Source: a virus (taxonomy: Duplodnaviria > Caudoviricetes). From it: a stretch of DNA of 64,000 bases. Positions 16 through 62,403 of this stretch are shown here, piece by piece. The notes below the pieces were generated by a model. It did no database searches, was not told the DNA's origin, and saw nothing but the letters and a program-made list of their open reading frames with translations. The position numbers and the translations under genes are program-made. Where the stretch lies: IMG/VR virus record IMGVR_UViG_3300043388_000007, positions 4,034 through 68,033 of that record, one strand, 5' to 3'. Every line of letters begins with the position of its first letter. Position 1 is the first letter of the stretch.

Positions 16-435
16 TCACCAATCCTCGCCCGCTGTCACGCCGATGCCGTAGACGCCGTAGCGGTCCAGACGCTCAGCATCGGAGTCGTAGACCCCACGC
101 ACCATGCGCTGATACGGGAGTATCGAGACGAACGTGTCGAGATCCAAATACTCGATCCCGTCGTACGGCACCTCGACCAGCGAGAGGTAGACGGCGGCCC
201 GATCTGCGAAGTCCTGGTTGATGAACGTCACCAGGCTGATCTCGTAGGGGTAGCGCTCCTTGGTGACGATCAGGCGCTTGAGCGGTACCTCGTACCACAT
301 GATGTGATACTGAACGTCCTCGGTCTTGATGAACCGGCCCCGTGTGGTGCGATCCACCACGACGTTGGCCAGCACACCCTCGATGACGATGTACAGCCGC
401 TCTGGGTGGTGCTCTTGGAGATCACCGAACTGCAC
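16..435 (-). CDS. Hypothetical protein, possibly degenerate HAD-like
   Basis: 139-aa ORF overlapping the end of the DnaC-like gene; YIVIEGVLA weakly resembles HAD motif I. Confidence 0.55.
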   Translation of the reverse strand: MQFGDLQEHHPERLYIVIEGVLANVVVDRTTRGRFIKTEDVQYHIMWYEVPLKRLIVTKERYPYEISLVTFINQDFADRAAVYLSLVEVPYDGIEYLDLDTFVSILPYQRMVRGVYDSDAERLDRYGVYGIGVTAGEDW

Positions 436-1015
436 GGTCAGCCTTCACCATCACGAAGAGATCCTTGACCACCGGCTCCAGATGGGCCAGGTGCCTGGCC
501 TCCAACGACGTGGACACCACCGTCGCCAGACCGTGCTTGACCCTGCTCTCCAACCGGGGGAACAGGTGGCGCTCGATGAAGTTCATGTTCGTGGCGCCGA
601 TGTGCAGGTCATCGATCCACAGTAGATCGCAGTCCTTCCACAGCCGGTCGAGCCTCCGCTCCACCTCCAGGGCCTCGAACCAGGCAGCGTCGTCCTTGGG
701 GTTGATGCGCACCGTCTCGTCCCAGCCCTGGGCCACCAGGGCGACCGCTTCCTCGGTCGTCACGTAGTCCCAGGCGATGATGCCGTAGGTCGGCTGGTTC
801 ACCTTGCGTACGGCCTCTCTGACGGCCACAGAGGCCTCGTACGTGGTCCCACTGCGCCGGGAGCCATGAACCCACAGACCGACCTGCCTGTCGCCCCTAC
901 CGCCCTTGTCGTGCTGCTCCTGGAGAGCCGTCAGCCACAGGTGCACCAAACGCTGGCTCTCCGTCGAGATGTTCTCGTACGTGCCAGGTTCAGGTAGGGA
1001 CAACACTGCGCTCAC
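422..1015 (-). CDS. DnaC/IstB-like AAA+ helicase loader (degenerate Walker A)
   Basis: GLWVHGSRRSGTT (Walker A-like, no Lys), LLWIDDL (Walker B), ..RVKHGLATVVSTSL typical of IstB/DnaC C-terminus; directly downstream of an initiator-like gene. Confidence 0.7.
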   Translation of the reverse strand: MSAVLSLPEPGTYENISTESQRLVHLWLTALQEQHDKGGRGDRQVGLWVHGSRRSGTTYEASVAVREAVRKVNQPTYGIIAWDYVTTEEAVALVAQGWDETVRINPKDDAAWFEALEVERRLDRLWKDCDLLWIDDLHIGATNMNFIERHLFPRLESRVKHGLATVVSTSLEARHLAHLEPVVKDLFVMVKADRAVR

Positions 1016-1131
1016 TCCTTCTGCGTCTCACCGCTCCCCCAGGGGTTCTCCCAGGGACCTATGCATTCGGCGCACCGTGGCCCCTGGGGGAAGGAGTGAG
1101 GTTCAGACGGTATCGGCCAAGGGCCGGGTCG

Positions 1132-2043
1132 TCAAGCCTCCCAGGCGTTGTTGTCCCGACCCCACCACCCGGTGAAGCGCTTCCAGGCCGACTGCCCGGA
1201 CTTGATCAGCACCCGCTCGGATCTCACCGCAGCGATGAAGCCGTCGATGTAGTCGATCACCTCGTCGTAGGTGTACCGACGCCCGGCCTCGGGCCGGAGG
1301 AACACGGTGTTGACATACCCGATGAAGGCGCCCTTGGACTCCCACAGCCGGATGGTGTCGAACTGAGGTAGCTCGTCCACCAGATCGAGCCACCGCAGGG
1401 CGAAGTAGTTGGCCAAGCGACGACCGGGGTCGGGGTCCGTGGCCCGTGGTCGTCTCTTGGCGTAGCCACGCTCGTTGGCAGCAGCGATCAACTCACTCGC
1501 TGTCTTCTTTCCACCACGGCTCTTCTCCACCTCTCTCACGGTAACCGTGCGGGCCGCTCTGGCGGCCCGCACCACCCGTGGGTGAGAAGTCGAAGACTTC
1601 TCACCCGAAGGGTGCTTGCTTTCTGTAGTGGGGGATACGTGAGTATCCCCTACTACTTTGCAGGCCAAGTTGGCCGCATGTGGACCGGCCAAGTTGGCCG
1701 CATGTGCTGTCAACTCCATCGGCTCTACGTGCTGTTCGTTGATGAGATACCGGGAGGTCGATGACTTACTCCCACGGCTCCTGACTCCGGCGTCGTACCA
1801 CACCGTGAGCAAGCCCAACTCCACGGCCATAGCGGTGTATCTGCGGCAACTCCGCACGCTCATCCTGGCTTCCAGAGCCAGCCGCTCCTGGCCGGGGCAA
1901 GCGTTGGGGTAGCGCCGAGCGATGGCCCAGAGAACGTCCATGATCTGCTGCCACTGGTGCAGCGTCAGGTGCGGTGGCTTCTCCATCGCCTTGAGGACGG
2001 CGAAGACTTGCATCCTGGCCAACCTGCCGTTACCGTGAGTCAC
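1132..2043 (-). CDS. Helix-turn-helix replication initiator-like protein
   Basis: N-terminal winged HTH (CPGQERLALEARMSVRSCRRYTAMAVELGLLTV), low-complexity linker containing DNA repeats, adjacent to DnaC-like loader. Confidence 0.72.
   Translation of the reverse strand: MTHGNGRLARMQVFAVLKAMEKPPHLTLHQWQQIMDVLWAIARRYPNACPGQERLALEARMSVRSCRRYTAMAVELGLLTVWYDAGVRSRGSKSSTSRYLINEQHVEPMELTAHAANLAGPHAANLACKVVGDTHVSPTTESKHPSGEKSSTSHPRVVRAARAARTVTVREVEKSRGGKKTASELIAAANERGYAKRRPRATDPDPGRRLANYFALRWLDLVDELPQFDTIRLWESKGAFIGYVNTVFLRPEAGRRYTYDEVIDYIDGFIAAVRSERVLIKSGQSAWKRFTGWWGRDNNAWEA
1573..1706. repeat. Candidate replication origin: two hairpins plus two 20-bp iteron-like direct repeats
   Basis: 12-bp perfect IR gggtgagaagtc-gaa-gacttctcaccc (1580-1606); 14-bp IR with 1 mismatch (1625-1656); ggccaagttggccgcatgtg at 1663-1682 and 1687-1706. 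Confidence 0.65.
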
Positions 2044-2128
2044 GACTACTCCAATCCAGTTGTCAATGACGCCAGGCCTCCAATCACCGAAGCGTCACAC
2101 CTTCCTGGCGGAAGGTAGCAGAACGACA

Positions 2129-2156
2129 GAGGCCCCCCTCCTAGGAGGGGGGCCTC
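2129..2156. terminator. Perfect 28-bp palindrome, probable terminator
   Basis: gaggcccccctcctaggaggggggcctc, intergenic just after the stop of the 2166..2561 ORF. Confidence 0.7.
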
Positions 2157-2165
2157 GTCGCTTCT

Positions 2166-3854: not shown

Positions 3855-3946
3855 GGCTTCCGTCTGATGTTGCGCCAGTTGAAGATGACAAGGAAGACGA
3901 GACAGCCGAGGATGACGAATCCGAGAGTGATGTACTCACCGGTCAT
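3851..3946 (-). CDS. Small single-TM peptide (31 aa, MTGEYITLGFVILGCLVFLVIFNWRNIRRKP)
   Basis: ATGA-coupled to the acyltransferase stop; one TM helix and a basic tail. Confidence 0.55.
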   Translation of the reverse strand: MTGEYITLGFVILGCLVFLVIFNWRNIRRKP

Positions 3947-5061
3947 CGGACCACAGCCACCGCCGTCGCCACCGGCACCACGTCGTTGCGGCGCTGGTAG
4001 CGCACGGCCGCTCGGCGCACCGGGATCTCCACCAGGTAGTAGGAGGCCGTCGCTGCGGCGAAGGTCAGCACCAAGGCGATCAGGGAACGCTGGAGCAGGG
4101 TCAGGTCGGTCTTGTTGTGCAGCGCCACGTAGAAGGGCACGTGCCACAGGTAGAGACCGTAGGAGATCCGGCCGACCCACACGATGGGGGCGACGCTGAC
4201 CGCCTTGGCCAGCACACCAGGCTGGAGCGCACGTGCGATGAGCAGGCAGAACAGCCCGGCGACGATGAGATACCCGCCTCGGTAGTAGAACGAACTGGTC
4301 CAGGGGAGAGTGATCAGCAGGACCGCCAACCCAGCCAGCACGGCCAGGATGGAGCGCCGGGACAAGCGTCCGATCCAGTTGGCGTGCAGAGCCTCACCGC
4401 CGATCGGCAGCACCGTCGCCAGGAGGCAGCCGGACATGATCATGACGGCGCCATGAGCGTCGGTGGAGGGGTATAGCACCGGAGCGCTGACACCGAGCAG
4501 CGAGCGGGTGCCCATCTCCAAGGCTGAGAAGGCGACCACGATGGCCGCACCGATGCGCACTCCACGCACGCCCTTCCAGCGGTGGAGCAGGACCAGGCCG
4601 AGCGGCCAGAGAATGTAGAACTGTTCCTCGACCGACAGCGACCAGGTGTGGTTGAGCACCGAACTGATGTTGAAGGCGATGGCCCAATTGGTGGTGTAGC
4701 TGAGGGCGGCGCCCACGCTGAACACCGAACTCTTCAAGCTTCCCAGCGCTCGCACGGTGGCGCCGTCAACGAGGATCACGAAGCACACCAGCATCAACGC
4801 TGGCAGCAACCGGGCCGCACGCCGCAGGTAGAAGCCCTTCACGTCGTTACCGCCGTTTCGGGTGCGCTCTTCGAGCAGCAGCCTGGTGATCAGGAAGCCG
4901 CTCAGCACGAAGAACAGATCGACGCCGAGGAAGCCCCCGGCGAAGAACTTCGGTGCGTCTCCGTAGTGCAGGACGATCACCGCCATCACCGCAAAGGCCC
5001 GCAGGCCATCCAGGGCTGGCCGGTAGCCGAGCCTCCCTGTGTATTCCGCCGCCGTGTTCAC
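3943..5061 (-). CDS. Acyltransferase-3 family O-acyltransferase (OafA/OatA membrane domain)
   Basis: YRPALDGLRAFAV, GGFLGVDLFFVLSGFLIT, FYLRRAARLLP, HTWSLSVEEQFY, WVGRISYGLYLWH, SYYLVEIP; about 10 TM helices; no SGNH domain. Confidence 0.93.
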   Translation of the reverse strand: MNTAAEYTGRLGYRPALDGLRAFAVMAVIVLHYGDAPKFFAGGFLGVDLFFVLSGFLITRLLLEERTRNGGNDVKGFYLRRAARLLPALMLVCFVILVDGATVRALGSLKSSVFSVGAALSYTTNWAIAFNISSVLNHTWSLSVEEQFYILWPLGLVLLHRWKGVRGVRIGAAIVVAFSALEMGTRSLLGVSAPVLYPSTDAHGAVMIMSGCLLATVLPIGGEALHANWIGRLSRRSILAVLAGLAVLLITLPWTSSFYYRGGYLIVAGLFCLLIARALQPGVLAKAVSVAPIVWVGRISYGLYLWHVPFYVALHNKTDLTLLQRSLIALVLTFAAATASYYLVEIPVRRAAVRYQRRNDVVPVATAVAVVR

Positions 5062-17577: not shown

Positions 17578-17578
17578 A

Positions 17579-17914: not shown

Positions 17915-19431
17915 GGTCCTGCGTCCGATGCGTTCCGTGATGTCGATGTGTTATTGGCGTTGTACGACATGTCCCTGCCCAGTGGCATCGGCCGCACGCC
18001 GAACCAGTCCTTCTGTGCGTAGTGGGCGGCGCTGTTGTGGTGGGTGCCGACCTGGGGGTTGGAGTTGTGACCAGCGGCCTCGAAGACGTTGAAGGCGCCA
18101 TTGCTGTCGTAGCTGTCGAAGAACTGGATGTGGCCGGTACGCACAAGGAGGTCCCCATACTGGAGTATCCCCGGCTTCTGGAGATCGGCCTGAGCAATGC
18201 GCTGGACCGTCTTGTAGTTCGAGGACGACCAGTAGCTGCGCATCGCTCCGGTACCGGGGTACCCACCGGAACCAAAGATCGCCTTGGTGTCGGCACCGAC
18301 TCCCTTGTAGGCCGCCACCACCAGGCCAGAGCAATCAGCCGAGGTGGGCAGGTTCCAGCGCTGCGAGCCAGAGGTGCTGTTGTTATACACCGTGGAACCG
18401 GTGACGTGGGCCTTGGCCCAGTCGAGGGCGGCTCTGCGCACCTTGGCGTTGGCGTCACCAGCGACACCGGACTGGTTGGTGTAGTCGTTGGTGGTGCCGG
18501 GGGTGTTGTTGGCCGCCGTCTGCTGAGCGAGCAGGTCACCGATGGTGACGATGATGTTGCTGTTGGCGTCACGGCCGTAGGGGATGGCGGCTTCGGCCTG
18601 GAACTCCTCGGCCCGGTACTGCGTCATGTCCCGCACCGGCCCCATGTAGTTGGCCCGGAGTGTCAGCGATATCGACATACGGGTGGGCGTCATACGGTGG
18701 GTGAACTTCATGAAGGTCACCCGAGCGTTGAGCGGACGACCCTGCACCGTGAACTGCGGGCTGAACACCACCGTGATGTCACGAGGGTTGACCATCATCA
18801 CACCGTTGTCAGGGAGTGTGTTACTCGTCTGGTTGGGGTCGGATGGGACGACGTTGCGCACCACCAGATCGAAGAACTGGTAGTCCACGTACACACCGGG
18901 GTGACTGACCTGGGTCGCTTCCTCCTGGCGATCGAAGAACAGGTCGAAGGAGAAGTCGAGGATCGAGGGCGGCGCCACCAGGTTGCCGCTCTGGTAGATC
19001 GTGTTGAAGGGGTCGAGTGCCGACTGGTCGAGGTAGCTCACGTAGTCCCGAGTGATCGTCTCGGGGTTGTACATGAAGTAGAGCCGGGCCTTGGACACGG
19101 CATCACCAGCATCGAAGGCGGCCCGCCTGATGTAGCCACGCAGGATGCGAGCAGGAGTACCGCTGGCGCTCTGGAGCGAGGGCAGGAGACGACCGGCCGC
19201 ACCGCTGACGAACGGTGGGTTGGACATGCCAGCGCTGATCTGACCGGACTGGAACCACTCGTAGGCGAACTGCTGGAGAAGCTGGTCAGCCGAGATGTTG
19301 TCGGGAGCGCTCTGCATCAGCGCCGTGGGCACATCGGCCCGGTTGTAGCCGGGAGCCGTGGACCAGCCATAGGCCTTGTTGACCAACTGCGACGGCCGGT
19401 AGACGTTGCGCAGGCCGTAGCGGTAGGCCAT
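17911..19431 (-). CDS. Tail tube initiator-like protein fused to an NlpC/P60 peptidoglycan hydrolase
   Basis: LYFMYNPETITRDY..FSFDLFFDR N-terminal domain; C-terminal DCSGLV...GDLLVRTGHIQF. Confidence 0.82.
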   Translation of the reverse strand: MAYRYGLRNVYRPSQLVNKAYGWSTAPGYNRADVPTALMQSAPDNISADQLLQQFAYEWFQSGQISAGMSNPPFVSGAAGRLLPSLQSASGTPARILRGYIRRAAFDAGDAVSKARLYFMYNPETITRDYVSYLDQSALDPFNTIYQSGNLVAPPSILDFSFDLFFDRQEEATQVSHPGVYVDYQFFDLVVRNVVPSDPNQTSNTLPDNGVMMVNPRDITVVFSPQFTVQGRPLNARVTFMKFTHRMTPTRMSISLTLRANYMGPVRDMTQYRAEEFQAEAAIPYGRDANSNIIVTIGDLLAQQTAANNTPGTTNDYTNQSGVAGDANAKVRRAALDWAKAHVTGSTVYNNSTSGSQRWNLPTSADCSGLVVAAYKGVGADTKAIFGSGGYPGTGAMRSYWSSSNYKTVQRIAQADLQKPGILQYGDLLVRTGHIQFFDSYDSNGAFNVFEAAGHNSNPQVGTHHNSAAHYAQKDWFGVRPMPLGRDMSYNANNTSTSRNASDAGP

Positions 19432-22268
19432 CAGCTTCTCCTCGACAGACGCTTGTTCACTTCGTCCTCCAGGTGGTCAGCGATGAGCGTGGCGGTACGT
19501 CGTGCGTCGATGCCGCCACCACTGCTACCACCACCGCCACCTCCGATCACGAAGGTGTTGGAGAACACCACACCGCCTCCCGACTGGACGACACGTGGGG
19601 CATAGCTGCCGTCCACGTCTCCGATCCAGCCCGCCTGGCGGGCCAGTGCCTCGCCTTGCTGTGCCGACGCCCAACCACCCTGAGTGCCGTTGAGCGGATC
19701 TCCGGTACGGCTCCAGCCGCCGTTGGGTGACATACCCCAGGGCCAGGTGACGGTGCCTCCGTTGGACAACATGTAGACGGCCTTGGCGTTGGTGAGCGGG
19801 TCGAACAACTGGCTGCGCCCAGACACGGTGTTGCCCGAGATGATCCCGGCTGCCGCCAGGTTGTCGTCGTTGGCGTAGTTGATCTGCCACACGCCACGGT
19901 CACCGATGATCCTCGCCGGATCAGCGTCGGTGCGATGGGCATCAGCCTGCCAACGTGACTCACGCCAGCCGATCTTGAGGAACTTGTCGAGGGCGTCACC
20001 ACGGAAGCCAGCGGCATACAGAGCACCAGCCGCCGAAGCAGCACGGGTGGCCTCGTCACTGGAGTTGAACCCGGCCCGCCAGTCACCACTCACGGTGCCA
20101 CCACCGCCGCCTCCACCGCCACCAGTGACGACTGAACCGCTTGTGATACCACGGTCAGAGAAGCGACCACCAGCCGCACCCATCATCTGCTCGTAGACGT
20201 TGGGGATGAAGGCGAGCTTGGTCGGGTCGATACTGGTACCACCGAGCATGGTGTTGAGGAAGCCGAGCATCGAGCCGGTGGTCCCGGCCACACCGCTCAT
20301 CGCCCCCGAGGGGCTGGACGAGAACATGCGGAAGAAGTCGCTGATGAGGTCGGTGATGTCACCGATGCCGCCACCATCGACATCACCCATGCCGACATGC
20401 CACGGCTCACCCTTGCTGGCTCCTGAACTGAGGCCGAACTTGCTGGCGTTGTTCATGATCCAGCCGTACTCACTGGCTGGCCCGAGGTCGGCGGCCATTC
20501 CTCTGGTGTGCGCAGATGGCTTACCCGAGACCCTGCCCAAACCTCGCTTCTTCAAGGTCTGCTGCATCCGATTGTCACGCAGACCAGACGTAACCCTGAT
20601 ACGAGGGTTTGCCCGCTGCATCGCCTTGACCTTGCGCTGCATGTCGGGGTGCAGCCCGGCTGCGCTGGTGCCACCGGTCGTGGTGTAGTCACCGATGTCG
20701 CCCACATCACCAGCGCCGGGCACCCAGTCGGGGAGCTTGTCCCACAGGTTGTTGGCGGCGCCGCTGATGAGACCGCCGAAGCTCGCACCACCAGCCAGAA
20801 GAGTGCCGAGCGAGCCGGAGTTCTCCAGCATCGACATCATCATCTGCTCCATGGTGTCCGGCATGAACTGAGCGAAGCCGAACTTGCCCGTTGACACGGC
20901 GGCGGGCACCGAGGTCTGGAGGAACTTGCCGAAGATGTCGTTGAAGAAGCGGTTCGAGGATTCCTTGTTGGCGTAGGCCCCTGACATGGTGGCGCCGAGA
21001 CCGAACTGAGCACCGGCCGCCGAGGTGGTGGCTTGGAGGCGCTGCCACAGCGGGTTGTCCTGCTGCGGCGTGATCGTCATCTCTCCGCTGGTACCGGTCT
21101 TCGACTTGTTGAGGGCGTAGGTCCACCAGTACTCACGCATCTCTTGTGATACGCCGGTCGAGGTGAACCAGGCATCGATGTTGGAGCCGGGGTAGTACTG
21201 GGCGACCAGTTCGCCGTAGTTGAAGGCCTTGCCCTTGTTGGAGCCACCACGGAGGCCCTGGAGCCACTTGAGCACGTCCTCAGCCCACTCCGAGAGCGAC
21301 TTCTGACCGCCTCCGGTCTTGATCATGCCCATCGCTCCACCGGTCATCATCACCGAGGCCTGCTGGGCACCGATGTTGCTGGCCTGACCGCCGATGGTCT
21401 GAGCGATCGACCCCAGCGAGGCACCGGGGTTCATCATCTGCGCCTGACGCACACCGGAGAGGAAGCCGTTGGCCCGAGGAGCGTTGCCCGCTCCCCCGAA
21501 GTCATAGAAGGCGCCGTACGACGGAGCACTGGAGAACAGATCGAGCACGTCACTCATCGGCCCCTGCACGCCACCAGGCATGCGAGCCAGTTGCCCAAGG
21601 ATCGTTGAGATGTTCGTGTTCGAGGCGAAGCCCACCCGGCCGAGTGCAGCACCGCTCGATAGCACGGTTTGACGGTTGGCCGAGATCTGATCACGGAGGA
21701 ACCGGAACGGGAACAGCGCTGCGTTGTTGGCCAGGTCGGCCGCCGAGGACAGAGCGCCACCGATGATCGGGATGCTGCTGAGCATGCCCCCGCCACCTCC
21801 ACCGCCGCCGCCTCCACCCCCGCCACCGGGGAACATATTGGCGCCCATGGAAGTACCGAGCGTGGACTGCGGAGCACCCACGGTGGCGATCGAGGACACC
21901 GCACGGTTGACCCACGACGCCGAGCCGTTGGCGCCAGCGGGAGCCGATGCCGTGGCTGGTGCGCCGCCACTGGTGCCCATGCTGGAGCCACCACCGACAC
22001 CGGCCACCGCCGAGGACACAGCGTTGAGCGCCGTGGCTGTCTCGTTGGCCCGCTTGGTGATGTTGGTGAACATCGAGTTGATGCCCTGCGTCAGCATGTA
22101 GCTGTTCGAGCCGAGGTCACGCAGGGCGCTCTTGAGACCGGTCAGTGCATCAGAGACGGCACCGATCTGCGAGGCCGCTGTGGACAGGGCGGGCAGGTTG
22201 AGGTTGACGCCCATGCCCATCGACGGCATGCCCGTTGCAGACGGTTCACCACCTCCGATGTCAGACAC
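19431..22268 (-). CDS. Tape measure protein with M15-like peptidase and lysozyme/transglycosylase-like domains
   Basis: Follows the chaperone; Gly/Ala-rich; VTSGLRD..SAHTRGMAAD..EPWHV; RESRWQADAH..DRGVWQIN. Confidence 0.88.
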   Translation of the reverse strand: MSDIGGGEPSATGMPSMGMGVNLNLPALSTAASQIGAVSDALTGLKSALRDLGSNSYMLTQGINSMFTNITKRANETATALNAVSSAVAGVGGGSSMGTSGGAPATASAPAGANGSASWVNRAVSSIATVGAPQSTLGTSMGANMFPGGGGGGGGGGGGGGMLSSIPIIGGALSSAADLANNAALFPFRFLRDQISANRQTVLSSGAALGRVGFASNTNISTILGQLARMPGGVQGPMSDVLDLFSSAPSYGAFYDFGGAGNAPRANGFLSGVRQAQMMNPGASLGSIAQTIGGQASNIGAQQASVMMTGGAMGMIKTGGGQKSLSEWAEDVLKWLQGLRGGSNKGKAFNYGELVAQYYPGSNIDAWFTSTGVSQEMREYWWTYALNKSKTGTSGEMTITPQQDNPLWQRLQATTSAAGAQFGLGATMSGAYANKESSNRFFNDIFGKFLQTSVPAAVSTGKFGFAQFMPDTMEQMMMSMLENSGSLGTLLAGGASFGGLISGAANNLWDKLPDWVPGAGDVGDIGDYTTTGGTSAAGLHPDMQRKVKAMQRANPRIRVTSGLRDNRMQQTLKKRGLGRVSGKPSAHTRGMAADLGPASEYGWIMNNASKFGLSSGASKGEPWHVGMGDVDGGGIGDITDLISDFFRMFSSSPSGAMSGVAGTTGSMLGFLNTMLGGTSIDPTKLAFIPNVYEQMMGAAGGRFSDRGITSGSVVTGGGGGGGGGTVSGDWRAGFNSSDEATRAASAAGALYAAGFRGDALDKFLKIGWRESRWQADAHRTDADPARIIGDRGVWQINYANDDNLAAAGIISGNTVSGRSQLFDPLTNAKAVYMLSNGGTVTWPWGMSPNGGWSRTGDPLNGTQGGWASAQQGEALARQAGWIGDVDGSYAPRVVQSGGGVVFSNTFVIGGGGGGSSGGGIDARRTATLIADHLEDEVNKRLSRRS

Positions 22269-22413
22269 CTGTGCGTTCCTTCTTCCAGCGGATCATCCGC
22301 AACCAGTAGTTCCGTTCCCGACCCGACATGCGCCGGATCTCACCGAGTGACCACCCTGGGTATCCCTGGGCCACCACGTCGTAGTTGATGTAGAGGGCTT
22401 GTTCGTCAGTTAC
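22261..22413 (-). CDS. Probable frameshift-accessed C-terminal extension of the tail assembly chaperone
   Basis: Open +1/-2 frame ..ALYINYDVVAQGYPGWSLGEIRRMSGRERNYWLRMIRWKKERTGV* between chaperone and tape measure; no good start codon with RBS. Confidence 0.65.
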   Translation of the reverse strand, partial: VTDEQALYINYDVVAQGYPGWSLGEIRRMSGRERNYWLRMIRWKKERTGV

Positions 22414-23245
22414 GAAAGAGATCCCCCCATCCGAGCGAGACCCTCGTCGGGTTCCCGCACACGGCGCAGTTGGTGGTCACCTCCAAGGCGATCGACGGCT
22501 GCTTGGCCACCAACAGGTTGAGCAGCGTGCTCCGGTCCTTCATCGTCATCGACCGCACGTAGGACATGGGGTCGGTGAGCAGCCCACCGTTGAGCTTGAC
22601 GATGACGTTGTTGAGGATGGTCGAGTTCTGTTCGGCCAGCGAGGCACCCTTACGGGTGATCGCCTCCCTCTGGTCGTCGCCGGTCACCAGCCGGTATGTC
22701 AACACGTCGCCCCTGGCGGTGGTGTAGGTCCAGGTCTCCAGGGTGAGATCCTCGACCTCCTTGGGCTTGAAGTCCTCGCTCAGCAGGAGCGTCATCTCCT
22801 GCTGCTCGTCGCAGGCCCCGCAGGTGAAGCCCACGTCCCTGGCGTCCCCGAACGTCACTCTGGTCACCGCCACGAAGAGTTGGTCCCGCTCACCCACCAG
22901 GAGGGTGCGCAGGAGAGCCTGGCGCTCCGACAGCGGCCTACTGGCCATGTCGAAGTCGTCAGCGCTGACGACACCGAGAGCGATCACGGTGTCGAAGAAG
23001 TCGGTCGGCTCCTTCTGCTTGGCCAGCACTTCCTCATCCAGTCCTGTCAACTCCCGGACGGTGATCTCGGTCTTGTGGACCCCGTTGACGTAGAGGCCGA
23101 GGGGAAGGATGAGCTTGTTGTCCGGCGCCTCTGGGATGAGGGGCACCGGACCGGCGATCGCTTCCTTGGCCTTCTGGAGGGCCTGCGACTTGTCTCCGAA
23201 CAGTTCTTCGGACGTGATGTCTTCTTTGTCTTGCACGTCAGTCAC
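22406..23245 (-). CDS. Tail assembly chaperone
   Basis: TVRELTGLDEE, CxxC pairs (CGAC, CAVC), between tube and tape measure. Confidence 0.82.
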   Translation of the reverse strand: MTDVQDKEDITSEELFGDKSQALQKAKEAIAGPVPLIPEAPDNKLILPLGLYVNGVHKTEITVRELTGLDEEVLAKQKEPTDFFDTVIALGVVSADDFDMASRPLSERQALLRTLLVGERDQLFVAVTRVTFGDARDVGFTCGACDEQQEMTLLLSEDFKPKEVEDLTLETWTYTTARGDVLTYRLVTGDDQREAITRKGASLAEQNSTILNNVIVKLNGGLLTDPMSYVRSMTMKDRSTLLNLLVAKQPSIALEVTTNCAVCGNPTRVSLGWGDLFRN

Positions 23246-40727: not shown

Positions 40728-40814
40728 GGTGATCCCTCGGGTTATCCCTGTGCGCTCGTTACTTATATCACGGATCGTGTTGATACAGCAGTATCTCAGT
40801 CCCTTAGGGGCGTA

Positions 40815-48770: not shown

Positions 48771-50393
48771 TCAGCCTCGGCGGAAGAACGGCGAGTCCAT
48801 GACCTCTACGACCGGTGCCGTCTCGGCCATAGAGCACACACACGCCAGCGCCAGAGAGTCCACATAATCATCGTGCGCCTCCCGCTCGTTGGGGGCCTCT
48901 ACCAGGAGGTACTGGCCCTTCATGACCTTCTCGGCATCGCTCATCTGCTGGCGGAAGTTACGCCAGACCCGAGTACGCCGAGCCTTGGAATGGCCGGGGT
49001 AGATGAGCATCCGGCGCTGAATCAACTGGATCAAGTGCTTCCAGCGGTCGCTCTGGTTCTTGGCGTCGCTGGAGTACGGCGTGACCTCGCAACGTGAGCC
49101 GAGCAGACGCTGGAGACGATCGGCCACCGCCGACCCCATGCCCTGGGCATCGACACCGACGAAGGCGATGTCGTAGGGGTCGAGGAACTCCATGATCTGG
49201 AAGTACTGCTCCTCCCAGGCCGTGTTGTGGATCTCCATCCAGTTGAGGATGCGGTGCTCCCGGTAGCCAGCCGGATCGGGGTAGTCCCAGTCCACCCAGC
49301 ACACCGTGACCACGGTGGAGTCCTTCACTCGGGCCGGGTCGATACCGACCACCACCGGGGTGCGGTGCCACGCCTTGACCAGGCCCATCGAGCGGTCGGC
49401 CAGCATGTCCAGGTCGTCCTCGGTGATGAGCATGCCTCGCTCAAGCATCCACTTGAGGGCGTATGACATCTGGAACTCTTCGGAGTCCTCACCGAGGCGG
49501 ATCTTCTCCTTCTCGATGAACTTGCGGTAGGCCGGGTTGTACTTGCTGACGACCTTGTGGTCGTACTCGAAGTGGTTGGAGCGCTTGCCCCGTTGGCGCC
49601 GCTTGTTGAGGTTGATGGCCTTGTAGAAGTCGCCCTTGGTGTAGCCGGGAGTGCCGATCTTCACCATCGTCCCGGCGTTGGCGGCGAGCATCGGGTGGAC
49701 GCTCTTGCGCACCACCATCTCATCGGCTTCCTGGGCCTCATCGATGACGATGATGTGATACGTGGAGCCTTCGATCTTGGCTCGGGGGTTGGCTGTCTGA
49801 CGGCGGCAGAACGACCCGTTGGAGAGTCGTATCACACGGCTCTTGCCTTCCACCTTCTCATCGATCTCGGGGTCCGACAAGATGGCCACCGCCCGCTCAC
49901 TGGAGAGGCGGGTGGCGATGCGGGAGAAGACGAGTTCGGACTGCTCCTCGACCGGAGCGAACAGGCCGACCATGAGGCCTTCCTTGAACTGCTCCATGAT
50001 CGGGTAGGTCTTGGCCAGGATCGGGAAGAGGATCATGCACCCAGCGAGAGTGGTGGCGACGACCTCGCTCTTGCCCGACTGGCGGGCCATCAAGCCGGTG
50101 ATTTCCTCGGCGTCGTTGAGGATCAAGGACTCGACAATCCGGTATGACATCGAGCGCTGGTAGGGCCGAAGCTCCTTGCCCCACAGTTCTTCACAGAACA
50201 GGATCGTCCGCTTGATGAGTTGGTCGAGGAAGTCGGCCATCTCCGGTTCGAGGTCGTCTAGTGCATGATCAGCCTCTTCCTCGGCCTCAGCCTGCGCATC
50301 GGCGGCCTCCAGTGCATCAAACTCGGCCTGCTCGTCCTCGGAGAGGTCGAAGCCCAGGTCCTCGATGATGATGTCGGCCACTGAGAGGACCAT
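48771..50393 (-). CDS. terL: Terminase large subunit
   Basis: LRPYQ, ARQSGKS (Walker A), IIVIDEAQ (Walker B), VGIDPA and HDDYVDS nuclease motifs. Confidence 0.95.
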   Translation of the reverse strand: MVLSVADIIIEDLGFDLSEDEQAEFDALEAADAQAEAEEEADHALDDLEPEMADFLDQLIKRTILFCEELWGKELRPYQRSMSYRIVESLILNDAEEITGLMARQSGKSEVVATTLAGCMILFPILAKTYPIMEQFKEGLMVGLFAPVEEQSELVFSRIATRLSSERAVAILSDPEIDEKVEGKSRVIRLSNGSFCRRQTANPRAKIEGSTYHIIVIDEAQEADEMVVRKSVHPMLAANAGTMVKIGTPGYTKGDFYKAINLNKRRQRGKRSNHFEYDHKVVSKYNPAYRKFIEKEKIRLGEDSEEFQMSYALKWMLERGMLITEDDLDMLADRSMGLVKAWHRTPVVVGIDPARVKDSTVVTVCWVDWDYPDPAGYREHRILNWMEIHNTAWEEQYFQIMEFLDPYDIAFVGVDAQGMGSAVADRLQRLLGSRCEVTPYSSDAKNQSDRWKHLIQLIQRRMLIYPGHSKARRTRVWRNFRQQMSDAEKVMKGQYLLVEAPNEREAHDDYVDSLALACVCSMAETAPVVEVMDSPFFRRG

Positions 50394-50561: not shown

Positions 50562-50846
50562 TTACCGCTTGCCACTCCGGGAAGTCGGTTTCTTCGTTCG
50601 AGGGATCGTCCGCTTGCGAGGTTGTTCATCGGGTAGCTCCACGTCGGCGGTCACCGCTCGCTGAGCCTCCTGGAACGAGAGCAGGGTCCTCTTCACCAAA
50701 CGCTGGTATCCCTCAAAGGACCGCTGGAACCGCTGCTTGTCCTCGATGATCTCCATGAGCCAGGAGAACGATCCGGCGTCGAGGTGGACCGTGTAGATCG
50801 GCCCGTCGTTGAGTCGTTCGAGGGCGTCTTGGCTGCGCTGGCTCAC
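50562..50846 (-). CDS. Hypothetical protein
   Basis: GTG start overlapping the upstream stop; basic tail. Confidence 0.6.
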   Translation of the reverse strand: MSQRSQDALERLNDGPIYTVHLDAGSFSWLMEIIEDKQRFQRSFEGYQRLVKRTLLSFQEAQRAVTADVELPDEQPRKRTIPRTKKPTSRSGKR

Positions 50847-51184
50847 TGCACGCCCTCCAACACTTTCACCATCTCCAGGATGCGAGTGTGCCCAGCCTCC
50901 GCTTCGACCAACGTCGAGTAGCGGTACTGCTCCACACCCTCCCACCAGTACTCAGTGCCGCCAGGCATCACGTACGGCTCGTCCCTGAGTGTGAACACCA
51001 TCGTCTCGAAGATCAGCGGAGGACCGCCAAAGAAGTTGTGGTTCAGACCCAACCAGACGGTGGACACCTTGATACCAGCGCCCACTTCGTCCCAAGCCAC
51101 GACGGCATACTCACGGATGTCCAGCAGGCGTGCCCACTCCTCCATGGTGATCGGCTCACCATCGATGTTGTAGAACCGACTCAC
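50843..51184 (-). CDS. Conserved phage hypothetical protein
   Basis: VSTVWLGLNH..GPPLIFETMVF..RYST..EA.AGH pattern. Confidence 0.75.
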   Translation of the reverse strand: MSRFYNIDGEPITMEEWARLLDIREYAVVAWDEVGAGIKVSTVWLGLNHNFFGGPPLIFETMVFTLRDEPYVMPGGTEYWWEGVEQYRYSTLVEAEAGHTRILEMVKVLEGVQ

Positions 51185-52743: not shown

Positions 52744-53000
52744 CGGACACTCCAGCGCTTGGGATACATCATGCGTTGACCGTCCATGATCATGCCCCGC
52801 ATGAACAACTCGTTGGCCAGCTTCTGCTGACCGATGCGTGGACCGATGATGGCGTTGCCGCCGCTCGGTAGAGCGCCGCCACCGCTACCACCGCAGTGGC
52901 CCTGGTACCTGTCGCCTGGGCCGTACCAGAACGCATGCGGTTCGTGATCGCCCTCGAAGAGGGGATGCCCCTTCCAGCGCTCGGCCCGACAGTCGTTCAC
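52740..53000 (-). CDS. Hypothetical protein
   Basis: 86 aa; C..HCGG. Confidence 0.55.
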   Translation of the reverse strand: MNDCRAERWKGHPLFEGDHEPHAFWYGPGDRYQGHCGGSGGGALPSGGNAIIGPRIGQQKLANELFMRGMIMDGQRMMYPKRWSVR

Positions 53001-53005
53001 TGATA

Positions 53006-53347
53006 TCAGTAGTTGAGGCGGCCGTGCTTCACCGGCACGTAGCTGTCGGGGTTGTGGTCGTAGGCAGCGGTGGTGCGATGGTGCCCATTGGCGAGCCTGG
53101 TGCCGTCGTTCTCACTGTGCACGATCAGGACTGGCTCTTGCACGCCGTGGGCGGCCACGTCCTTGTCGAGGCCTTCCCGCTTGTTCTCACGGCGCTTCAC
53201 CTTCCACATGGCGTCCTTGGACTTCCAGGCCCCGCCCATACGGTCATTGGGGAACCGCTGAACGTCGATCGAGTTCATGCCGTGCAGTTCTCGGGCCGTC
53301 ATGAACATGGCGAGTTGCTGCGGGTGGAGATGGTCTGAGGCAGCCAT
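53006..53347 (-). CDS. ParB/Sulfiredoxin-like domain protein
   Basis: LDKDVAAHGVQEPV...LANGHHRTTAA; N-terminal QQLAMFMTARE. Confidence 0.78.
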   Translation of the reverse strand: MAASDHLHPQQLAMFMTARELHGMNSIDVQRFPNDRMGGAWKSKDAMWKVKRRENKREGLDKDVAAHGVQEPVLIVHSENDGTRLANGHHRTTAAYDHNPDSYVPVKHGRLNY

Positions 53348-53763
53348 CAGGTCCTCACTCTCGACCCGACACCACGGCGCTTGTCGTTGGAGGGAGCGTC
53401 ATACTCGAACGGGTCCATCGGTCGGTAGGTGTAGTTGTCCAGGGTCGAGTTGATGTGCTTGCCCTTGCTGGCAACTCGGGCGAATGAGCGATAGCCCTCG
53501 TAGTCCACGTTCTCGTAGACGTAGCCGTGGCCCTTGTTGTTGGTCCACTGCACCTGGAGAGAGCGCTGGAGGTGGTCGTAGCGGAAGCGGCTCACCCGGC
53601 TGGACGATGGAGTCTCGATCCAGGGGCCGAGGTCGTGGGCGCCACCGACATCGACACCAGCGAAGATCTCTTCGGCTGAGAGGGCTGGACCTCTGGACTT
53701 GCCGGAAGCCTCGGCGGTGCCCTGGTTGGCACCGACTTGGCCACCCTTCGGACGTGCTGCCAT
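53347..53763 (-). CDS. KTSC domain protein
   Basis: PSSSRVSRFRYD...LQVQW....YVYENV....F....SKGKHIN. Confidence 0.85.
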   Translation of the reverse strand: MAARPKGGQVGANQGTAEASGKSRGPALSAEEIFAGVDVGGAHDLGPWIETPSSSRVSRFRYDHLQRSLQVQWTNNKGHGYVYENVDYEGYRSFARVASKGKHINSTLDNYTYRPMDPFEYDAPSNDKRRGVGSRVRT

Positions 53764-53801: not shown

Positions 53802-54080
53802 GTGACAGACGAGGACCAGATCGTGTGCTCGGCCATGGGCGTGGGCGTCAAGATCGTCAACGACGAGGCCCGGCTGTTCGTCACCCTCGGGGTCGAACAC
53901 GGCGAAGCCACTCACATCATCCTCCTGCCCCCGGAACGTTGGGGCGAAGTGATCACCTCGATGATGGCCGCCGCCCACGAGGCTCACAAGATCAACGATG
54001 AACTGAGCGGGTACGTCGGTGAGGAACGCCTCATCCACCTGTCCGAGATCGCCTCCCGCTACAACGCCGGGAGCAACTGA
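53802..54080 (+). CDS. Hypothetical protein, isolated plus-strand gene
   Basis: GTG at 53802 after TATCGT; good codon usage; followed by a hairpin terminator. Confidence 0.7.
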   Translation: MTDEDQIVCSAMGVGVKIVNDEARLFVTLGVEHGEATHIILLPPERWGEVITSMMAAAHEAHKINDELSGYVGEERLIHLSEIASRYNAGSN

Positions 54081-54082
54081 TC

Positions 54083-54119
54083 AGAGCCGGGGCTGTGAGG
54101 AGTCATCAGCCCCGGCTCT
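54083..54119. terminator. Bidirectional hairpin terminator between convergent genes
   Basis: agagccggggctg / cagccccggctct 13-bp stem. Confidence 0.75.
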
Positions 54120-56671: not shown

Positions 56672-56680
56672 ACTGTATCA
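56672..56680 (-). promoter_or_regulatory. Extended -10 promoter, leaderless start of the clamp-like gene
   Basis: TGaTACAGT, 6 nt before the GTG at 56665; inside the cactgt/acagtg IR. Confidence 0.6.
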
Positions 56681-56920
56681 CACAGTGGGGGCTTGTGCTA
56701 CCTCGTCCGCTTCTTCGACCGGCCGGTTCCGGGAGGGCGGCTGAGGCTCGATGGTGACCTTCCAGTGTGAAAGCCCCATATCCCGGTATTGGACAGGCAG
56801 GTCCTCGATCACGATTCCGTTGAATCGCTCGACTCCAGCCTGCGCCGAGAGGTCGGAGAGGTCGTGGATGACACCCTGGAGGTCTTCTGCGATCTTGTCG
56901 AAGGTCAGTGGCTTGGACAT
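56678..56920 (-). CDS. Hypothetical protein
   Basis: 80 aa; TAGTAT 6 nt before the ATG. Confidence 0.6.
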   Translation of the reverse strand: MSKPLTFDKIAEDLQGVIHDLSDLSAQAGVERFNGIVIEDLPVQYRDMGLSHWKVTIEPQPPSRNRPVEEADEVAQAPTV

Positions 56921-56946
56921 GTGGTGATACTAGAGGCCTGACGCAC

Positions 56947-56977
56947 AAGTGCCCCGGTCACAGCGACCGGGGCACTT
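56947..56977. terminator. Perfect 13-bp hairpin terminator
   Basis: aagtgccccggtc-acagc-gaccggggcactt. Confidence 0.8.
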
Positions 56978-56991
56978 ACTTCACCGAGTGG

Positions 56992-57123
56992 TCAACTCGC
57001 CGGGTACTGGTCCTTGTCCTTGTCGTTCTTCTCCATGAAGGCGTAGCCGCTGGTGTAGCCGCCCTGGGTGAAGTCGGCAACCCTGCCGAGCGTCTCGATG
57101 CTGGGTGATTCGTAGTCCACCAT
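56992..57123 (-). CDS. 43-aa peptide with lasso/RRE-type RiPP leader (MVDYESPSIETLGRVADFTQ-GGYTSGYAFMEKNDKDKDQYPAS)
   Basis: Not in the ORF track; AGGAGA RBS 7 nt upstream; own promoter and terminator; YxxPxI-xxx-G-xxxxx-T-x-G leader spacing. Confidence 0.72.
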   Translation of the reverse strand: MVDYESPSIETLGRVADFTQGGYTSGYAFMEKNDKDKDQYPAS

Positions 57124-57154
57124 AGTGATGTCTCCTGTTCGGTAGTGGACCATC

Positions 57155-57163
57155 ACTATAGCA
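57155..57163 (-). promoter_or_regulatory. Extended -10 promoter for the RiPP-like peptide
   Basis: TGcTATAGT on the minus strand. Confidence 0.6.
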
Positions 57164-57177
57164 GATGTGGTGAGATA

Positions 57178-57693
57178 CTAGGACTCGACCAGCATCCTGG
57201 TCATCACCGGGTCTCTGGTGATGATGGTGGCGACCCAGTTGACGATGCGTTGGCTCTGGTCGGGGGAGTACGTCTCGGGCGTCCCGTAGTGCGCCTGCAA
57301 CTGCTCCATCCAGCCATCGAGAGCATCGAGCCGGGTCCGTGGTCCTCGGGCCAGGGTGTCGTTGGGGACGATGACCGGTCGCTTGGCGTGCTCGACTCGA
57401 CGGGTCCCCGACTCGTAGTACAGCTTGATACCTGGGTTGTCCTGACGGACCAGGTAGTTGAGGATGGTCAGGAAGGAGCGGTGGAAGTCCTGCGATCCCT
57501 TCGTGCCCTGCCACTTCTGCTCGCCCAGGTCCCGCAGCGCTCGGCCCTCGGAAAGCGTCTGGCGGGGAAGCACCAGGCGTGTAGGACAGATCTCAGGTCT
57601 GTCGTTGGTACGGCCGTTACGTGTCGCTCCTGAGCATTGCAGCAGCCTGATACCCACGATCTCGCAGGTGACATACTTCCTATCAGGTGTCAT
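57178..57693 (-). CDS. Hypothetical protein
   Basis: 171 aa; TGcTACATT extended -10, 7 nt before the ATG (leaderless). Confidence 0.7.
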   Translation of the reverse strand: MTPDRKYVTCEIVGIRLLQCSGATRNGRTNDRPEICPTRLVLPRQTLSEGRALRDLGEQKWQGTKGSQDFHRSFLTILNYLVRQDNPGIKLYYESGTRRVEHAKRPVIVPNDTLARGPRTRLDALDGWMEQLQAHYGTPETYSPDQSQRIVNWVATIITRDPVMTRMLVES

Positions 57694-57725
57694 GCTCGCG
57701 AATGTAGCACCAGGTAGATAGGTGT

Positions 57726-57989
57726 CTAGTCCGTTGAGACGACGCTCTTCTCCACCGCTACATCAACGCCGTAGTACTTGACCCATACCGTGGTCAGCAG
57801 CGCCGAGAGCCGGTAGGGCAGGCCAGCGTCGGGGTCGCCCACGTCCTTACAGAAGTGCTGGTGGTCGATCAGGTGACCGATGCCGCCCATGACTTCACGC
57901 AAGGCGCAGGCCTTGTGCATCGGCTGGATCGAGGATGCCGAGTTCTCGTCCTCCATCGGAGTATCACAGAGCACGCAGTTCACTGCCAT
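57726..57989 (-). CDS. Zinc-binding hypothetical protein
   Basis: CVLC...MHKAC..H..HQHFC. Confidence 0.65.
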   Translation of the reverse strand: MAVNCVLCDTPMEDENSASSIQPMHKACALREVMGGIGHLIDHQHFCKDVGDPDAGLPYRLSALLTTVWVKYYGVDVAVEKSVVSTD

Positions 57990-59718: not shown

Positions 59719-59791
59719 GCGTCAAGGATACCGAACCTTGTCACTAAGAGACAAGGTGACCCCGTACGCCGGTATCAGCGACATACGCTGG

Positions 59792-60963: not shown

Positions 60964-60972
60964 AGACGTATC

Positions 60973-61296
60973 TTACAGCATGTTCGGCCCTTGTCCCTTA
61001 GGGACATTCATCCGTTCGAGGGCACGACGCATTATCTGGCTCGGCCAGGCAGGCCTCGGCTCGTCGGTGACGCAGAGCGGCTCACCGGCTCGTTCGCAGA
61101 CGCCCATCTGATAGCAGATCCCATGCTCGTCGGCCCCTGGCAAACCGTGGTATCGGGCGTAGTACGGACAGGTGCCGAGATCGACCTCATCCTGGCTGCC
61201 CCACTCGTTCGGCTTGAACAGGCTCAACTGGTGCGGCGGCACTACGGGTACCGTGATCAGGAGTTCTTCAGGCTCCCAGTTGAGATACTTAGACAT
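60973..61296 (-). CDS. Early protein with QLSLF motif and Cys cluster
   Basis: PPHQLSLFKP; CPY..CYQMGVC..C. Confidence 0.7.
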   Translation of the reverse strand: MSKYLNWEPEELLITVPVVPPHQLSLFKPNEWGSQDEVDLGTCPYYARYHGLPGADEHGICYQMGVCERAGEPLCVTDEPRPAWPSQIMRRALERMNVPKGQGPNML

Positions 61297-61582
61297 ACGG
61301 GCGCTCACGCACCAGCATCGGCAGCGAGCAGGCCCGGACGAGTGTGCCCTCCAGCCAGTAGTACGAGATGCTGGTCATGTTGTGGTAGAAGGTCTTGGCC
61401 AACGTCTCGACGGCCCACTTCTGGTCGAACAGGACGGTCTCGATCTTCTGGAACCGCTCTTCCTCGGAGTCCTCTCGAACCCTGCCGCCCCAGATCCCGT
61501 AGATCACATCGATCACCTTGGGTATGGTCAGCGTCCCCGGCAGCGGCAGTTGCAGACCGTAGATCTCGGAGTCGCCACTCAC
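61289..61582 (-). CDS. QLPLP-family early protein
   Basis: YGLQLPLPGTLT; GTGA-coupled start. Confidence 0.7.
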   Translation of the reverse strand: MSGDSEIYGLQLPLPGTLTIPKVIDVIYGIWGGRVREDSEEERFQKIETVLFDQKWAVETLAKTFYHNMTSISYYWLEGTLVRACSLPMLVRERPYV

Positions 61583-61899
61583 GAGAGGCCCCACCTCTTC
61601 TTCGTCACGTACATCGGCAGTATCTTACTCTCGACAGTCTTGTCACGCCTGCGGGTGATGAAGCCGTACGTGTCGGTCAGGAAGGCTGTGGACAGAGCGT
61701 CGATCATCAGATCAGGGTCGTTCAGCGTCACGTCCCTGATGTAACGGCGGTTCTTCCCGTCGCTCGGCACGTTCATCACGACCTTGGCGTACTCTTCGGC
61801 CTGCGCTTTGGTGAAGATCGGCAGGGGCAACTGGAGGCCGTGAGTGAGATAGAGCACTGGTTTGCGCTTCTTGGGGTTCGGTCGCCGCCTGTACACCAT
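61579..61899 (-). CDS. QLPLP-family early protein
   Basis: HGLQLPLPIFT. Confidence 0.7.
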   Translation of the reverse strand: MVYRRRPNPKKRKPVLYLTHGLQLPLPIFTKAQAEEYAKVVMNVPSDGKNRRYIRDVTLNDPDLMIDALSTAFLTDTYGFITRRRDKTVESKILPMYVTKKRWGLS

Positions 61900-61915
61900 C
61901 TCAGTCTAGATGTCC

Positions 61916-62125
61916 CTAAGAGACTAGTGCTGTGCCGAACTGCACAGTCTGCGGAATCAACCGGGTGATGAACCACTCCTGCTGCTCGAAAGAGCGGGTC
62001 CAGTCCTGGGCGTCGTATCTCAACTGCGGATACCAGGTGTTCTCGTAGACCTCGGTATGGCGCCACACCAGATACGGCAGGATCGTCTCTTCGGTGAGCA
62101 GACCGGGCAGCGGTAGCTGGATCAC
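61916..62125 (-). CDS. QLPLP-family early protein
   Basis: MIQLPLPGLLT. Confidence 0.7.
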   Translation of the reverse strand: MIQLPLPGLLTEETILPYLVWRHTEVYENTWYPQLRYDAQDWTRSFEQQEWFITRLIPQTVQFGTALVS

Positions 62126-62133
62126 TTGAGACC

Positions 62134-62403
62134 TCAGGACTCTTTCGGCTCAATGAGATACCGCCGCTGACGACGAGAGTCCCACTGGTTGTTAGTGGAC
62201 GAGGGATCGAGCCGAACCTCAGCGACATCGACCACGTTCGTGAGCAGGTAGTCGTGGTCCTCTTCCAGGCGCTTGACGACATTGCCCATGTCGTAGATGC
62301 CGACGCCACGATGAACCCAGCGATAGAAGGGCAGAGCGGTCTCCACCGTGAACACCGGCAGCGGCAACTGCACGCCCTGCCTACCGAGCCAGTTCATGCT
62401 CAC
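62134..62403 (-). CDS. QLPLP-family early protein
   Basis: QGVQLPLPVFT. Confidence 0.7.
   Translation of the reverse strand: MSMNWLGRQGVQLPLPVFTVETALPFYRWVHRGVGIYDMGNVVKRLEEDHDYLLTNVVDVAEVRLDPSSTNNQWDSRRQRRYLIEPKES

Follow-up and report, generated by a model that had tools for sequence, protein, structure and literature searches.

The window analysed here, a 64,000-nucleotide stretch of viral DNA covering bases 4034-68033 of a 68,033-bp IMG/VR viral contig (about 58% complete; labelled G000), carries many dispersed copies of the asymmetric 8-bp word TGWSATAC (W, A or T; S, C or G). TGWSATAC is a DNA-level word, independent of frame and strand. It is probably the half-site of a sequence-specific, double-strand DNA-binding protein in one clade of uncultured, apparently virulent soil myoviruses related to the Streptomyces phage BRock. 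The preliminary description of this DNA had proposed a genome-wide DNA-level signal. That proposal is supported, and the signal is likely read by a protein, in view of its use in all frames and on both strands, its excess over codon-aware expectation, and its promoter-, operator- and iteron-like settings in relatives.

The word and its coding context

All 40 copies of TGWGATAC in the preliminary description were exact in position and strand (29 on the + strand, 11 on the - strand). The reported excess over chance was confirmed, as dinucleotide shuffles yielded a mean of 1.9 and a maximum of 8 copies. Under an order-3 Markov model, the two TGWGATAC 8-mers were the top two outliers among all 8-mers of the contig. 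A position-by-position substitution table revealed that C is tolerated at position 4, giving the wider consensus TGWSATAC, with 59 copies in the window (41 +, 18 -) and 64 on the whole contig (TGAGATAC, 21; TGTGATAC, 23; TGACATAC, 11; TGTCATAC, 9). TGTGTTAC was raised as well. The sites in the window are:

303-62817, both strands: the 59-site TGWSATAC set, made up of 40 TGWGATAC and 19 TGWCATAC
TGWCATAC sites, + strand: 1311, 7635, 9344, 19728, 29073, 33783, 46187, 54240, 55211, 57669, 59628, 62810
TGWCATAC sites, - strand: 22694, 25313, 41880, 43394, 49461, 50142, 62661

Positions T1, G2, T6 and A7 of the word are practically invariant. Information is limited to the 8 bp and weakly informative flanks: about 56% of 295 pooled sites have G at -2, while -1 disfavours C and +1 shows C or T (weak extension G-D-TGWSATAC-Y). 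The copies share almost no flanking similarity, indicating that they are not duplicated segments, and the reversed word, of the same composition, stayed at background level in every genome. A literature search for the word returned primer matches only. The avoidance of T 3 nt past the word, considered as a mark of a disabled extended -10 element, was discarded because the same depletion follows any ...TAC word in GC3-rich genes.

The nearest cultured phages are the Streptomyces phages BRock, Alone3, LuckySocke, GiJojo and pSt2308, with about 47% terminase identity. IMG/VR contains relatives at 68-85% terminase identity, five of which are near-complete (G001-G005, 107-118 kb). BRock is virulent and carries no lysogeny genes (PMC7453282), and no match to tyrosine or serine integrases (Phage_integrase, Resolvase) was found in the five near-complete genomes. 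The relatives have linear genomes with terminal repeats. Enrichment of the word is strong in G000, G011, G012, G001 and G002, moderate in G003 and G005, and absent from G004, G014, G015 and four cultured Streptomyces phages, being confined to an uncultured clade of BRock-like myoviruses. The enriched genomes use different dialects: G005 has almost only TGTGATAC, G002 has TGTGATAC together with TGTGTTAC, and G000 and G012 have TGAGATAC as often as TGTGATAC. In the chromosomes of five candidate soil actinobacteria, the word occurs 22-100 times per 3-4 Mb without skew, corresponding to one copy per 30-150 kb as against about one per kb in the phage.

The relatives also differ in gene content. G001 encodes a Ku homologue (Pfam Ku, 1e-13; 93751-94560, L055:13751-14560) beside an AAA_5 ATPase and with a VWA-domain protein nearby, and a Ku gene is also present in G002, G003 and G005, the complete motif-enriched genomes, and not in G004. 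G004 encodes a WhiB-domain protein (91244-91651, + strand; 1e-18) with a weak helix-turn-helix (HTH) match in the same 193-aa frame. WhiB was found only in G004 and in none of the motif-enriched genomes. Over-represented words of its own, TTGGCCTT and CACTAGTG, were also observed in G004.

Fifty-one of the 64 contig copies are intragenic and occupy three frames on both strands, and the peptides encoded at the sites are unrelated (V-S-H, G-I-T, x-Y-L/H-I and x-R-Y). Consistent with the earlier remark that the word forces rare codons, TAT, GTA-TCA and ACA readings are present at sites. Synonymous-codon and codon-order shuffles within genes (300 each) left about 2 genic copies on the + strand and about 1.5 on the - strand, compared with 38 and 13 in the actual genes, so the main check proposed for refuting the signal does not refute it. 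We further calculated occupancy, defined as the share of synonymously possible positions that actually carry the word, for G000 and its relatives:

G000: antisense 34/105 (32%), sense 13/56 (23%); codon usage predicts 1.6-2%
G012, enriched relative: antisense 25%, sense 28%
G011, enriched relative: antisense 20%, sense 21%
G001, enriched relative: antisense 14%, sense 12%
G002, enriched relative: antisense 12%, sense 6%
G003, enriched relative: antisense 7%, sense 5%
G005, enriched relative: antisense 6%, sense 0%
G004, G014 and G015: 1.4-4% in both orientations, equal to the codon-usage expectation

The 29:11 orientation bias described earlier is correct as a raw count; as a preference it is mostly a coding artefact. 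A codon-model gene caller placed 110-112 of the 112-114 contig genes on the - strand, and with the genes on that strand the word can be synonymously encoded at about twice as many positions in antisense as in sense (105 vs 56). Per opportunity, no difference between antisense and sense was observed in G000 (p=0.28), G011 (p=1.0) or G012 (p=0.85). A mild antisense excess remained when five genomes were pooled (12.8% vs 7.9%, p=0.007). Since the genes are co-directional and the word is used in an orientation-neutral manner, it has no polarity toward any genome-wide process. Orientation-neutral use favours recognition of duplex DNA and disfavours RNA-level signals and strictly strand-specific mechanisms.

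Placement and promoter-like settings

The statement that many copies sit at gene junctions was partly right. Fourteen copies are intergenic (5.6 expected) and 11 fall in the last 40 nt of genes (4.2 expected), an enrichment of about 2.5-fold; such sites are a minority, and 39 of the 64 lie deep in genes. Site density is 0.8-1.4 per kb across all modules. Even spacing or tiling was rejected, because the coefficient of variation of 0.93-0.95 is that of random placement. Local groups of four sites are found at:

49461-50149: terminase-gene cluster, four sites in 700 bp (49461 -, 49754 +, 49829 -, 50142 -)
56675-57968: intergenic run, four sites among very small genes (56675 -, 57171 +, 57669 +, 57961 -)

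The terminase-gene cluster is the densest exact cluster of the window. Its site at 49754 is conserved in G001, G002 and G003, and the terminase gene of G002 shows the same four-site clustering. Within the intergenic run, two other soil strains have the cassette 57167-57739 replaced and the junction site kept. The swapped junction reads GTGG-TGTGATAC-TAGG and the reference GTGG-TGAGATAC-TAGG, the W position being exchanged (A for T).

In the relatives, the word builds promoter-like structures. G001 (99.4-101.6 kb) and G002 (59.5-66.2 kb) carry nine and ten near-identical promoter units, respectively, in which the word forms the -35 box. The units have the layout gtTTGTGATAC, 13-15 nt, TAcaCT. 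Most of them stand between genes in sense orientation, with a start codon 35-130 nt downstream; those of G002 usually have an inverted second copy 14-29 bp away. Over five genomes, 13 of 222 sites are followed by an inverted partner at a spacing of exactly 4 nt (N4), with 1.9 expected per spacing. In G005, roughly 1 kb without genes contains 8 or more copies of GTTGTGATAC/GTTGTGACAC, some in each orientation; three copies show a phasing of 35-36 bp, and this array is about 50 kb from the initiator gene of that genome. In the window, the corresponding regions are:

2595-2631, - strand: promoter-type unit with TTGTGATAC, a spacer containing GGTTGCTAGTAAC, and TAnnnT
40728-40814, - strand: portal-scaffold control region with cTGATACG, CCCTaAG, TGAGATAC-N4-GTATCA, 13 nt, and the extended -10-like GTGATATAAG

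The unit at 2595-2631 is located in a 207-bp gap upstream of the gene 2166-2561, in sense orientation and 62 nt before its start codon. It is the only complete promoter-type unit in the window and is not called by a generic sigma-70 scan; we regard it as a weak candidate promoter or operator. The portal-scaffold region would hold the scaffold/capsid promoter: a scaffold-like gene starts at 40727, and the -35 position is taken up by the palindromic pair. G001 and G002 share this arrangement, with the site at 40791 among the few conserved letter for letter, and GATAC/GTATC half-sites remain even in the motif-poor G004. The counterpart of the relatives' early promoter array would lie just past the right end of the partial G000 contig. 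As far as sequence can tell, the promoter, palindrome and array contexts are signatures of a sequence-specific DNA-binding protein at the -35 region.

Several more specific models were tried and rejected. Orphan sites do not serve as full promoters, since TAnnnT stands at the right distance for only one window site. CRP-type TGTGA-N6-TCACA sites misfit in spacing, the partners being found at N4 or at 14-29 bp. A T4-like late-promoter and sliding-clamp model was abandoned because no clamp was found and most copies are misoriented or deep in genes. The clamp gene named in the preliminary description was not recovered, as no DNA_pol3_beta match was obtained in six frames and the candidate open reading frames had no Pfam match.

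A second over-represented word, the palindrome GTTGCTAGCAAC (core TGCTAGCA), occurs 22 times in G003 (0.9 expected) and 10 times in G001, and GTTGCTAG occurs 14 times in G002 (1.2 expected) and twice in total in the window. The GTTGCTAGCAAC-type palindrome often stands beside the 8-mer in promoter regions, and an imperfect window copy, GGTTGCTAGTAAC (2604-2615, -), is located in the promoter-type unit.

Candidate readers and competing explanations

The replication module begins at the left end of the window with the best candidate reader found there:

1132-2043, - strand: lambda O-like/HTH_36 replication initiator of 303 aa, heading the helicase-primase module

Four of five members of this initiator family matched PHROG 270/391/1032 ('replication initiation'), and the G001 orthologue matched Pfam HTH_36 above the cut-off (36 bits). 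The AlphaFold2 (AF2) model of the initiator shows a confidently predicted winged helix at the N terminus, followed by a disordered linker and then a C-terminal domain of helices; the winged-helix head is similar in fold to MarR/SlyA and DnaD-N domains. A weak Sigma70_r4 match proved to be the winged helix of the same protein. The initiator gene itself contains two sites (1311 and 1743), and within 1 kb on either side of the initiator gene 27 sites were counted in six genomes against 14.2 expected, about twofold; in G015, 3 of 13 sites fall within this distance. Every one of the six densely marked genomes encodes a 'type A' initiator (30-47% mutual identity), as do 13 other contigs, which hold 53 copies of the word and one copy of the control word in 59 kb. 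No homologue of the initiator was found in 50,697 cultured phage records. On the basis of sequence and model, the initiator may therefore be put forward as the reader; the presence of its family as a sufficient predictor of enrichment is ruled out by G015.

A second lead is the A1 protein of G001 (160 aa; 86871-87353, -; L055:6871-7353), which is encoded on the opposite strand and has orthologues in G002, G003 and G005. It combines a conserved N-terminal domain with a Lys/Ala-rich, histone-H1-like basic tail, and a TTGTGTTAC-type promoter precedes its gene. Searches of Pfam, of known folds and of the atlas gave no match for it, and its AF2 model has a predicted local distance difference test (pLDDT) score of 64. 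The A1 region is missing from the partial G000 contig. It is possible that A1 is a DNA-binding protein that reads the word. GATAC half-sites were present at the capsid promoter before the word expanded, so a core protein is another possible reader.

Under the half-site reading, a monomer or dimer of a phage-encoded or, less likely, host protein would bind the sites. At promoters, this protein may replace or occlude -35 recognition and act as an activator or as a shut-off repressor. The roughly 50 orphan copies in the window would be kept by selection on their number and not on their exact place, and may load, concentrate or titrate the protein along the whole phage chromosome. If the initiator at 1132-2043 is the reader, the sites could work like dispersed DnaA boxes or iterons. 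In those systems, a roughly 9-bp asymmetric word is read by an HTH or winged-helix initiator, with copies at the origin and at promoters and many orphans in either orientation (DnaA/datA; plasmid and phage Rep/O). The phage resembles them in encoding a winged-helix, O-like initiator that co-occurs with the dense form of the word; it differs in its far higher density, in that no tight origin cluster was found beside the initiator gene, and in that G005 and G015 break a simple one-to-one link.

Several observations weigh against the half-site reading. No classical repressor-type HTH, sigma, ParB or WhiB domain was detected in the enriched genomes by Pfam/PHROG analysis of about 70 proteins, and ParB_N gave no match above the cut-off. 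The window has a single weak promoter-type unit, so the promoter role rests on the relatives. Neither within the initiator gene nor next to it was a tight, lambda-like block of iterons seen, and density there is raised only about twofold. Phylogeny confounds the initiator link, the carriers all being members of a single clade; in G015 a 'type B' initiator homologue occurs without enrichment, and G005 uses the word yet has type B and no type-A initiator. The selection of orphan copies to such a density also lacks an explanation. Finally, compared with AT-matched random 8-mers, site conservation was 10-21% vs about 17% at 73% identity and 33% vs 28% at 78-85% identity, not a significant rise.

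Since the random-8-mer control includes protein-constrained positions and the word uses unpreferred codons, we restricted the comparison to orthologous positions at which the word is encodable in both genomes. At these, having a site in one genome made a site in the other more likely (26 of 67 positions, 39%, vs 23 of 272, 8%), with an odds ratio of 6.9 and p=1e-8 over pairs that are phylogenetically non-independent. Together with the random-8-mer result, this suggests partial retention alongside much turnover. Among strain variants identified via an identical capsid protein, 0 changes were seen in 64 motif positions against about 0.8 expected, a comparison without power at a divergence of 0-1.3%.

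The closest analogue among known systems is the set of 17-bp dyad repeats of Cluster O mycobacteriophages. The repeat of this Corndog group, 5'-TGTTCGGNNNCCGAACA, has more than 30 dispersed copies, of which about a third are intragenic and most are not at promoters (PMC4351075). The repeats have no meaningful orientation to transcription and no established function, and they are taken to be sites at which a protein binds; genes for Ku and an AAA ATPase are present in the phages, which show no obvious sign of being temperate (PMC4351075). TGWSATAC is similar in its dozens of copies, many of them intragenic, the absence of an orientation rule and the non-temperate phage, and Ku and an AAA ATPase are carried by the relatives G001, G002, G003 and G005. 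It differs from the perfect palindrome of Cluster O (7+3+7, invariant arms) in being an 8-bp asymmetric half-site with degenerate positions that is only occasionally N4-paired. Moreover, 80% of copies are intragenic vs about 33%, density is about 1 per kb, the word saturates synonymous opportunities and forms promoter -35 boxes, and the host group and phage backbone are unrelated.

A bolder version of the half-site reading, which we consider unlikely, is a genome-wide 'self' code. Here an initiator or regulator would have driven its own half-site into a fifth to a third of synonymous positions, so that it loads on the phage chromosome and not on that of the host. The purpose might be multi-site recruitment of replisomes or RNA polymerase, or shielding from nucleases. 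If this were true, phage DNA would be marked by sequence density and not by base modification, which is undescribed for a lytic phage. 

A further known parallel to the word is given by the DNA uptake sequences (DUS) of Neisseria and the uptake signal sequences (USS) of Pasteurellaceae, which serve the uptake of DNA by competent bacteria. Like DUS and USS, TGWSATAC is a short word present about once per kb in coding regions and in all frames, with orientation unimportant and selection on density. Unlike them, it belongs to a virion-delivered genome that needs no uptake, and it also builds promoters and operator-like arrays.

Whichever protein would read it, the half-site reading has wider implications. 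A few actinophage groups are known to carry recognition words scattered through their genomes (Cluster A stoperators, Cluster O repeats), and what such words do in phages that are not temperate is an open question. The present case adds an 8-bp asymmetric half-site free of orientation, its use of 20-32% of synonymous opportunities, and its placement at promoter -35 positions. The gradation of relatives from none to saturated, together with near-identical DNA in soil metagenomes from 19 studies, makes the question testable. A DNA-binding code can strongly shape viral codon choice, which bears on gene prediction, on host prediction from codon usage, and on the design of recoded phages.

The preliminary description had drawn an analogy to the stoperators of phage L5. 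In a strict stoperator system of the type known from L5 and Streptomyces phage R4, an immunity-type repressor would block initiation at a promoter copy and stop elongating RNA polymerase at the dispersed copies, so that the genome is silenced; we judge such a system improbable for the present word. Stoperators are known from the Cluster A mycobacteriophages L5 and Bxb1 (PMC9283540, PMC6550527) and from the Streptomyces phages R4/phiJoe (PMC10276819). The analogy holds insofar as the word overlaps the -35 of the relatives' repeated promoter family, with many more copies dispersed. The site is likewise asymmetric, could be read by a monomer, and occurs in lineage-specific dialects. Co-directional genes would make read-through control useful, and the pooled antisense excess fits such a role. 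Stoperators, however, measure 13-14 bp, are found in short gaps between genes, run in the direction of transcription and come from temperate phages that have an immunity repressor, four features that are not matched here. The word is 8 bp, 61% of copies lie deep in genes, and per opportunity the three densest genomes have no orientation preference. As for lifestyle, BRock is virulent, the five near-complete relatives yielded no tyrosine or serine integrase, and no repressor-like HTH was found in the roughly 70 proteins.

Equally doubtful is that the word is the target of a DNA-modifying or nicking enzyme, with the high copy number spreading a mark along the genome. Localized nicks occur in T5, tf/LUZ24-like and phiKMV-like phages. 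A short asymmetric word inside genes at this density would suit such an enzyme, the marks would be invisible in assembled sequence, and an SNF2 helicase and several unknown proteins are encoded. The modification option of the preliminary description nevertheless drew no support from methyltransferases, none of which is common to the enriched genomes: D12 occurs only in G012 and C5 only in G003, and none of the N6_N4, D12 and C5 methylases was found in G000, G001, G002 or G005, in a screen that did not extend to nickases. Known nick motifs show a strand bias, which this orientation-neutral word does not. A modification target also gives no reason for the -35 position, the fixed-spacer palindromes or the phased arrays, and neither modification nor nicking supplies a known reason for positive selection on copy number. 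Packaging, the other option named, is not indicated by anything observed.

Less probable still is a Chi-like 'self' word that attenuates a processive nuclease, either of the host (AdnAB/RecBCD-type) or of the phage, and so protects linear phage DNA, with density as the property that matters. Density-type selection with much turnover would be expected of such a word, which is an 8-mer like the Chi of E. coli. The strong density contrast with bacterial chromosomes and the linear, terminally repeated genomes of relatives agree with it. However, the word is rare and unskewed in the five candidate soil actinobacterial chromosomes, which may not include the true host, and Chi is read on one strand, whereas TGWSATAC is used equally in both orientations. 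The idea leaves the promoter -35 placement, the N4 palindromes and the phased array unexplained, and the Ku carried by relatives is another end-guarding route.

An absence of function, with the word arising as a side effect of codon usage, amino-acid motifs, mutation bias or repeated recent duplication, is hardly credible: coding constraints do explain the antisense excess and a generic codon-phase effect the T depletion after the word, but codon-preserving shuffles give 10-20 times fewer copies, the peptides differ across three frames and both strands, the copies share almost no flanking similarity, the reversed word is at background in every genome, and close relatives of similar composition (G004, G014, G015) lack the word.

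Gene content of the contig and soil strains

The window encodes the structural module of a myovirus:

48771-50393: large terminase
40815-42473: SPP1-type portal
38503-39846: capsid
32404-34692: collagen-like fibre
23897-25540: sheath
22406-23245: baseplate
19431-22268: SLT-domain protein

Small genes fill about 13 kb upstream of this module. The replication module headed by the O-like initiator continues beyond the window with a DnaB-type helicase, a DnaG-type primase, a DUF6551 protein and the SNF2 helicase. None of the listed public runs containing the phage DNA is an RNA dataset. Other soil strains lack or replace the small-gene cassettes 50846-51181, 53000-53372, 54076-54118, 57167-57739, 61296-61597 and 62681-62965, as seen from contig joints in two to three independent runs. 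These strain differences are a sign of active gene flux among the small genes upstream of the terminase.

The gene at 53802-54080 (92 aa) is the sole well-supported + strand gene in the window; it is kept in G001-G003 (28-34% identity) and has no family match. Nearby, 53347-53763 (-) encodes a small KTSC-domain protein (1e-8), a domain frequent in phages. An acyltransferase of the Acyl_transf_3 family (6e-30) is encoded at 3943-5061 (-). It has about 40% identity to proteins from many soil phyla and singles out no host, and it could be a surface-polysaccharide modifying (serotype-conversion-like) gene. Several other strongly strand-specific 8-mers were also observed on the + strand of the contig, among them CTTGGCCA (21 vs 1 on the opposite strand), TTGGCGTA (13 vs 1) and GAAGCCCT (12 vs 0), which probably reflect codon or peptide effects of one-strand coding.

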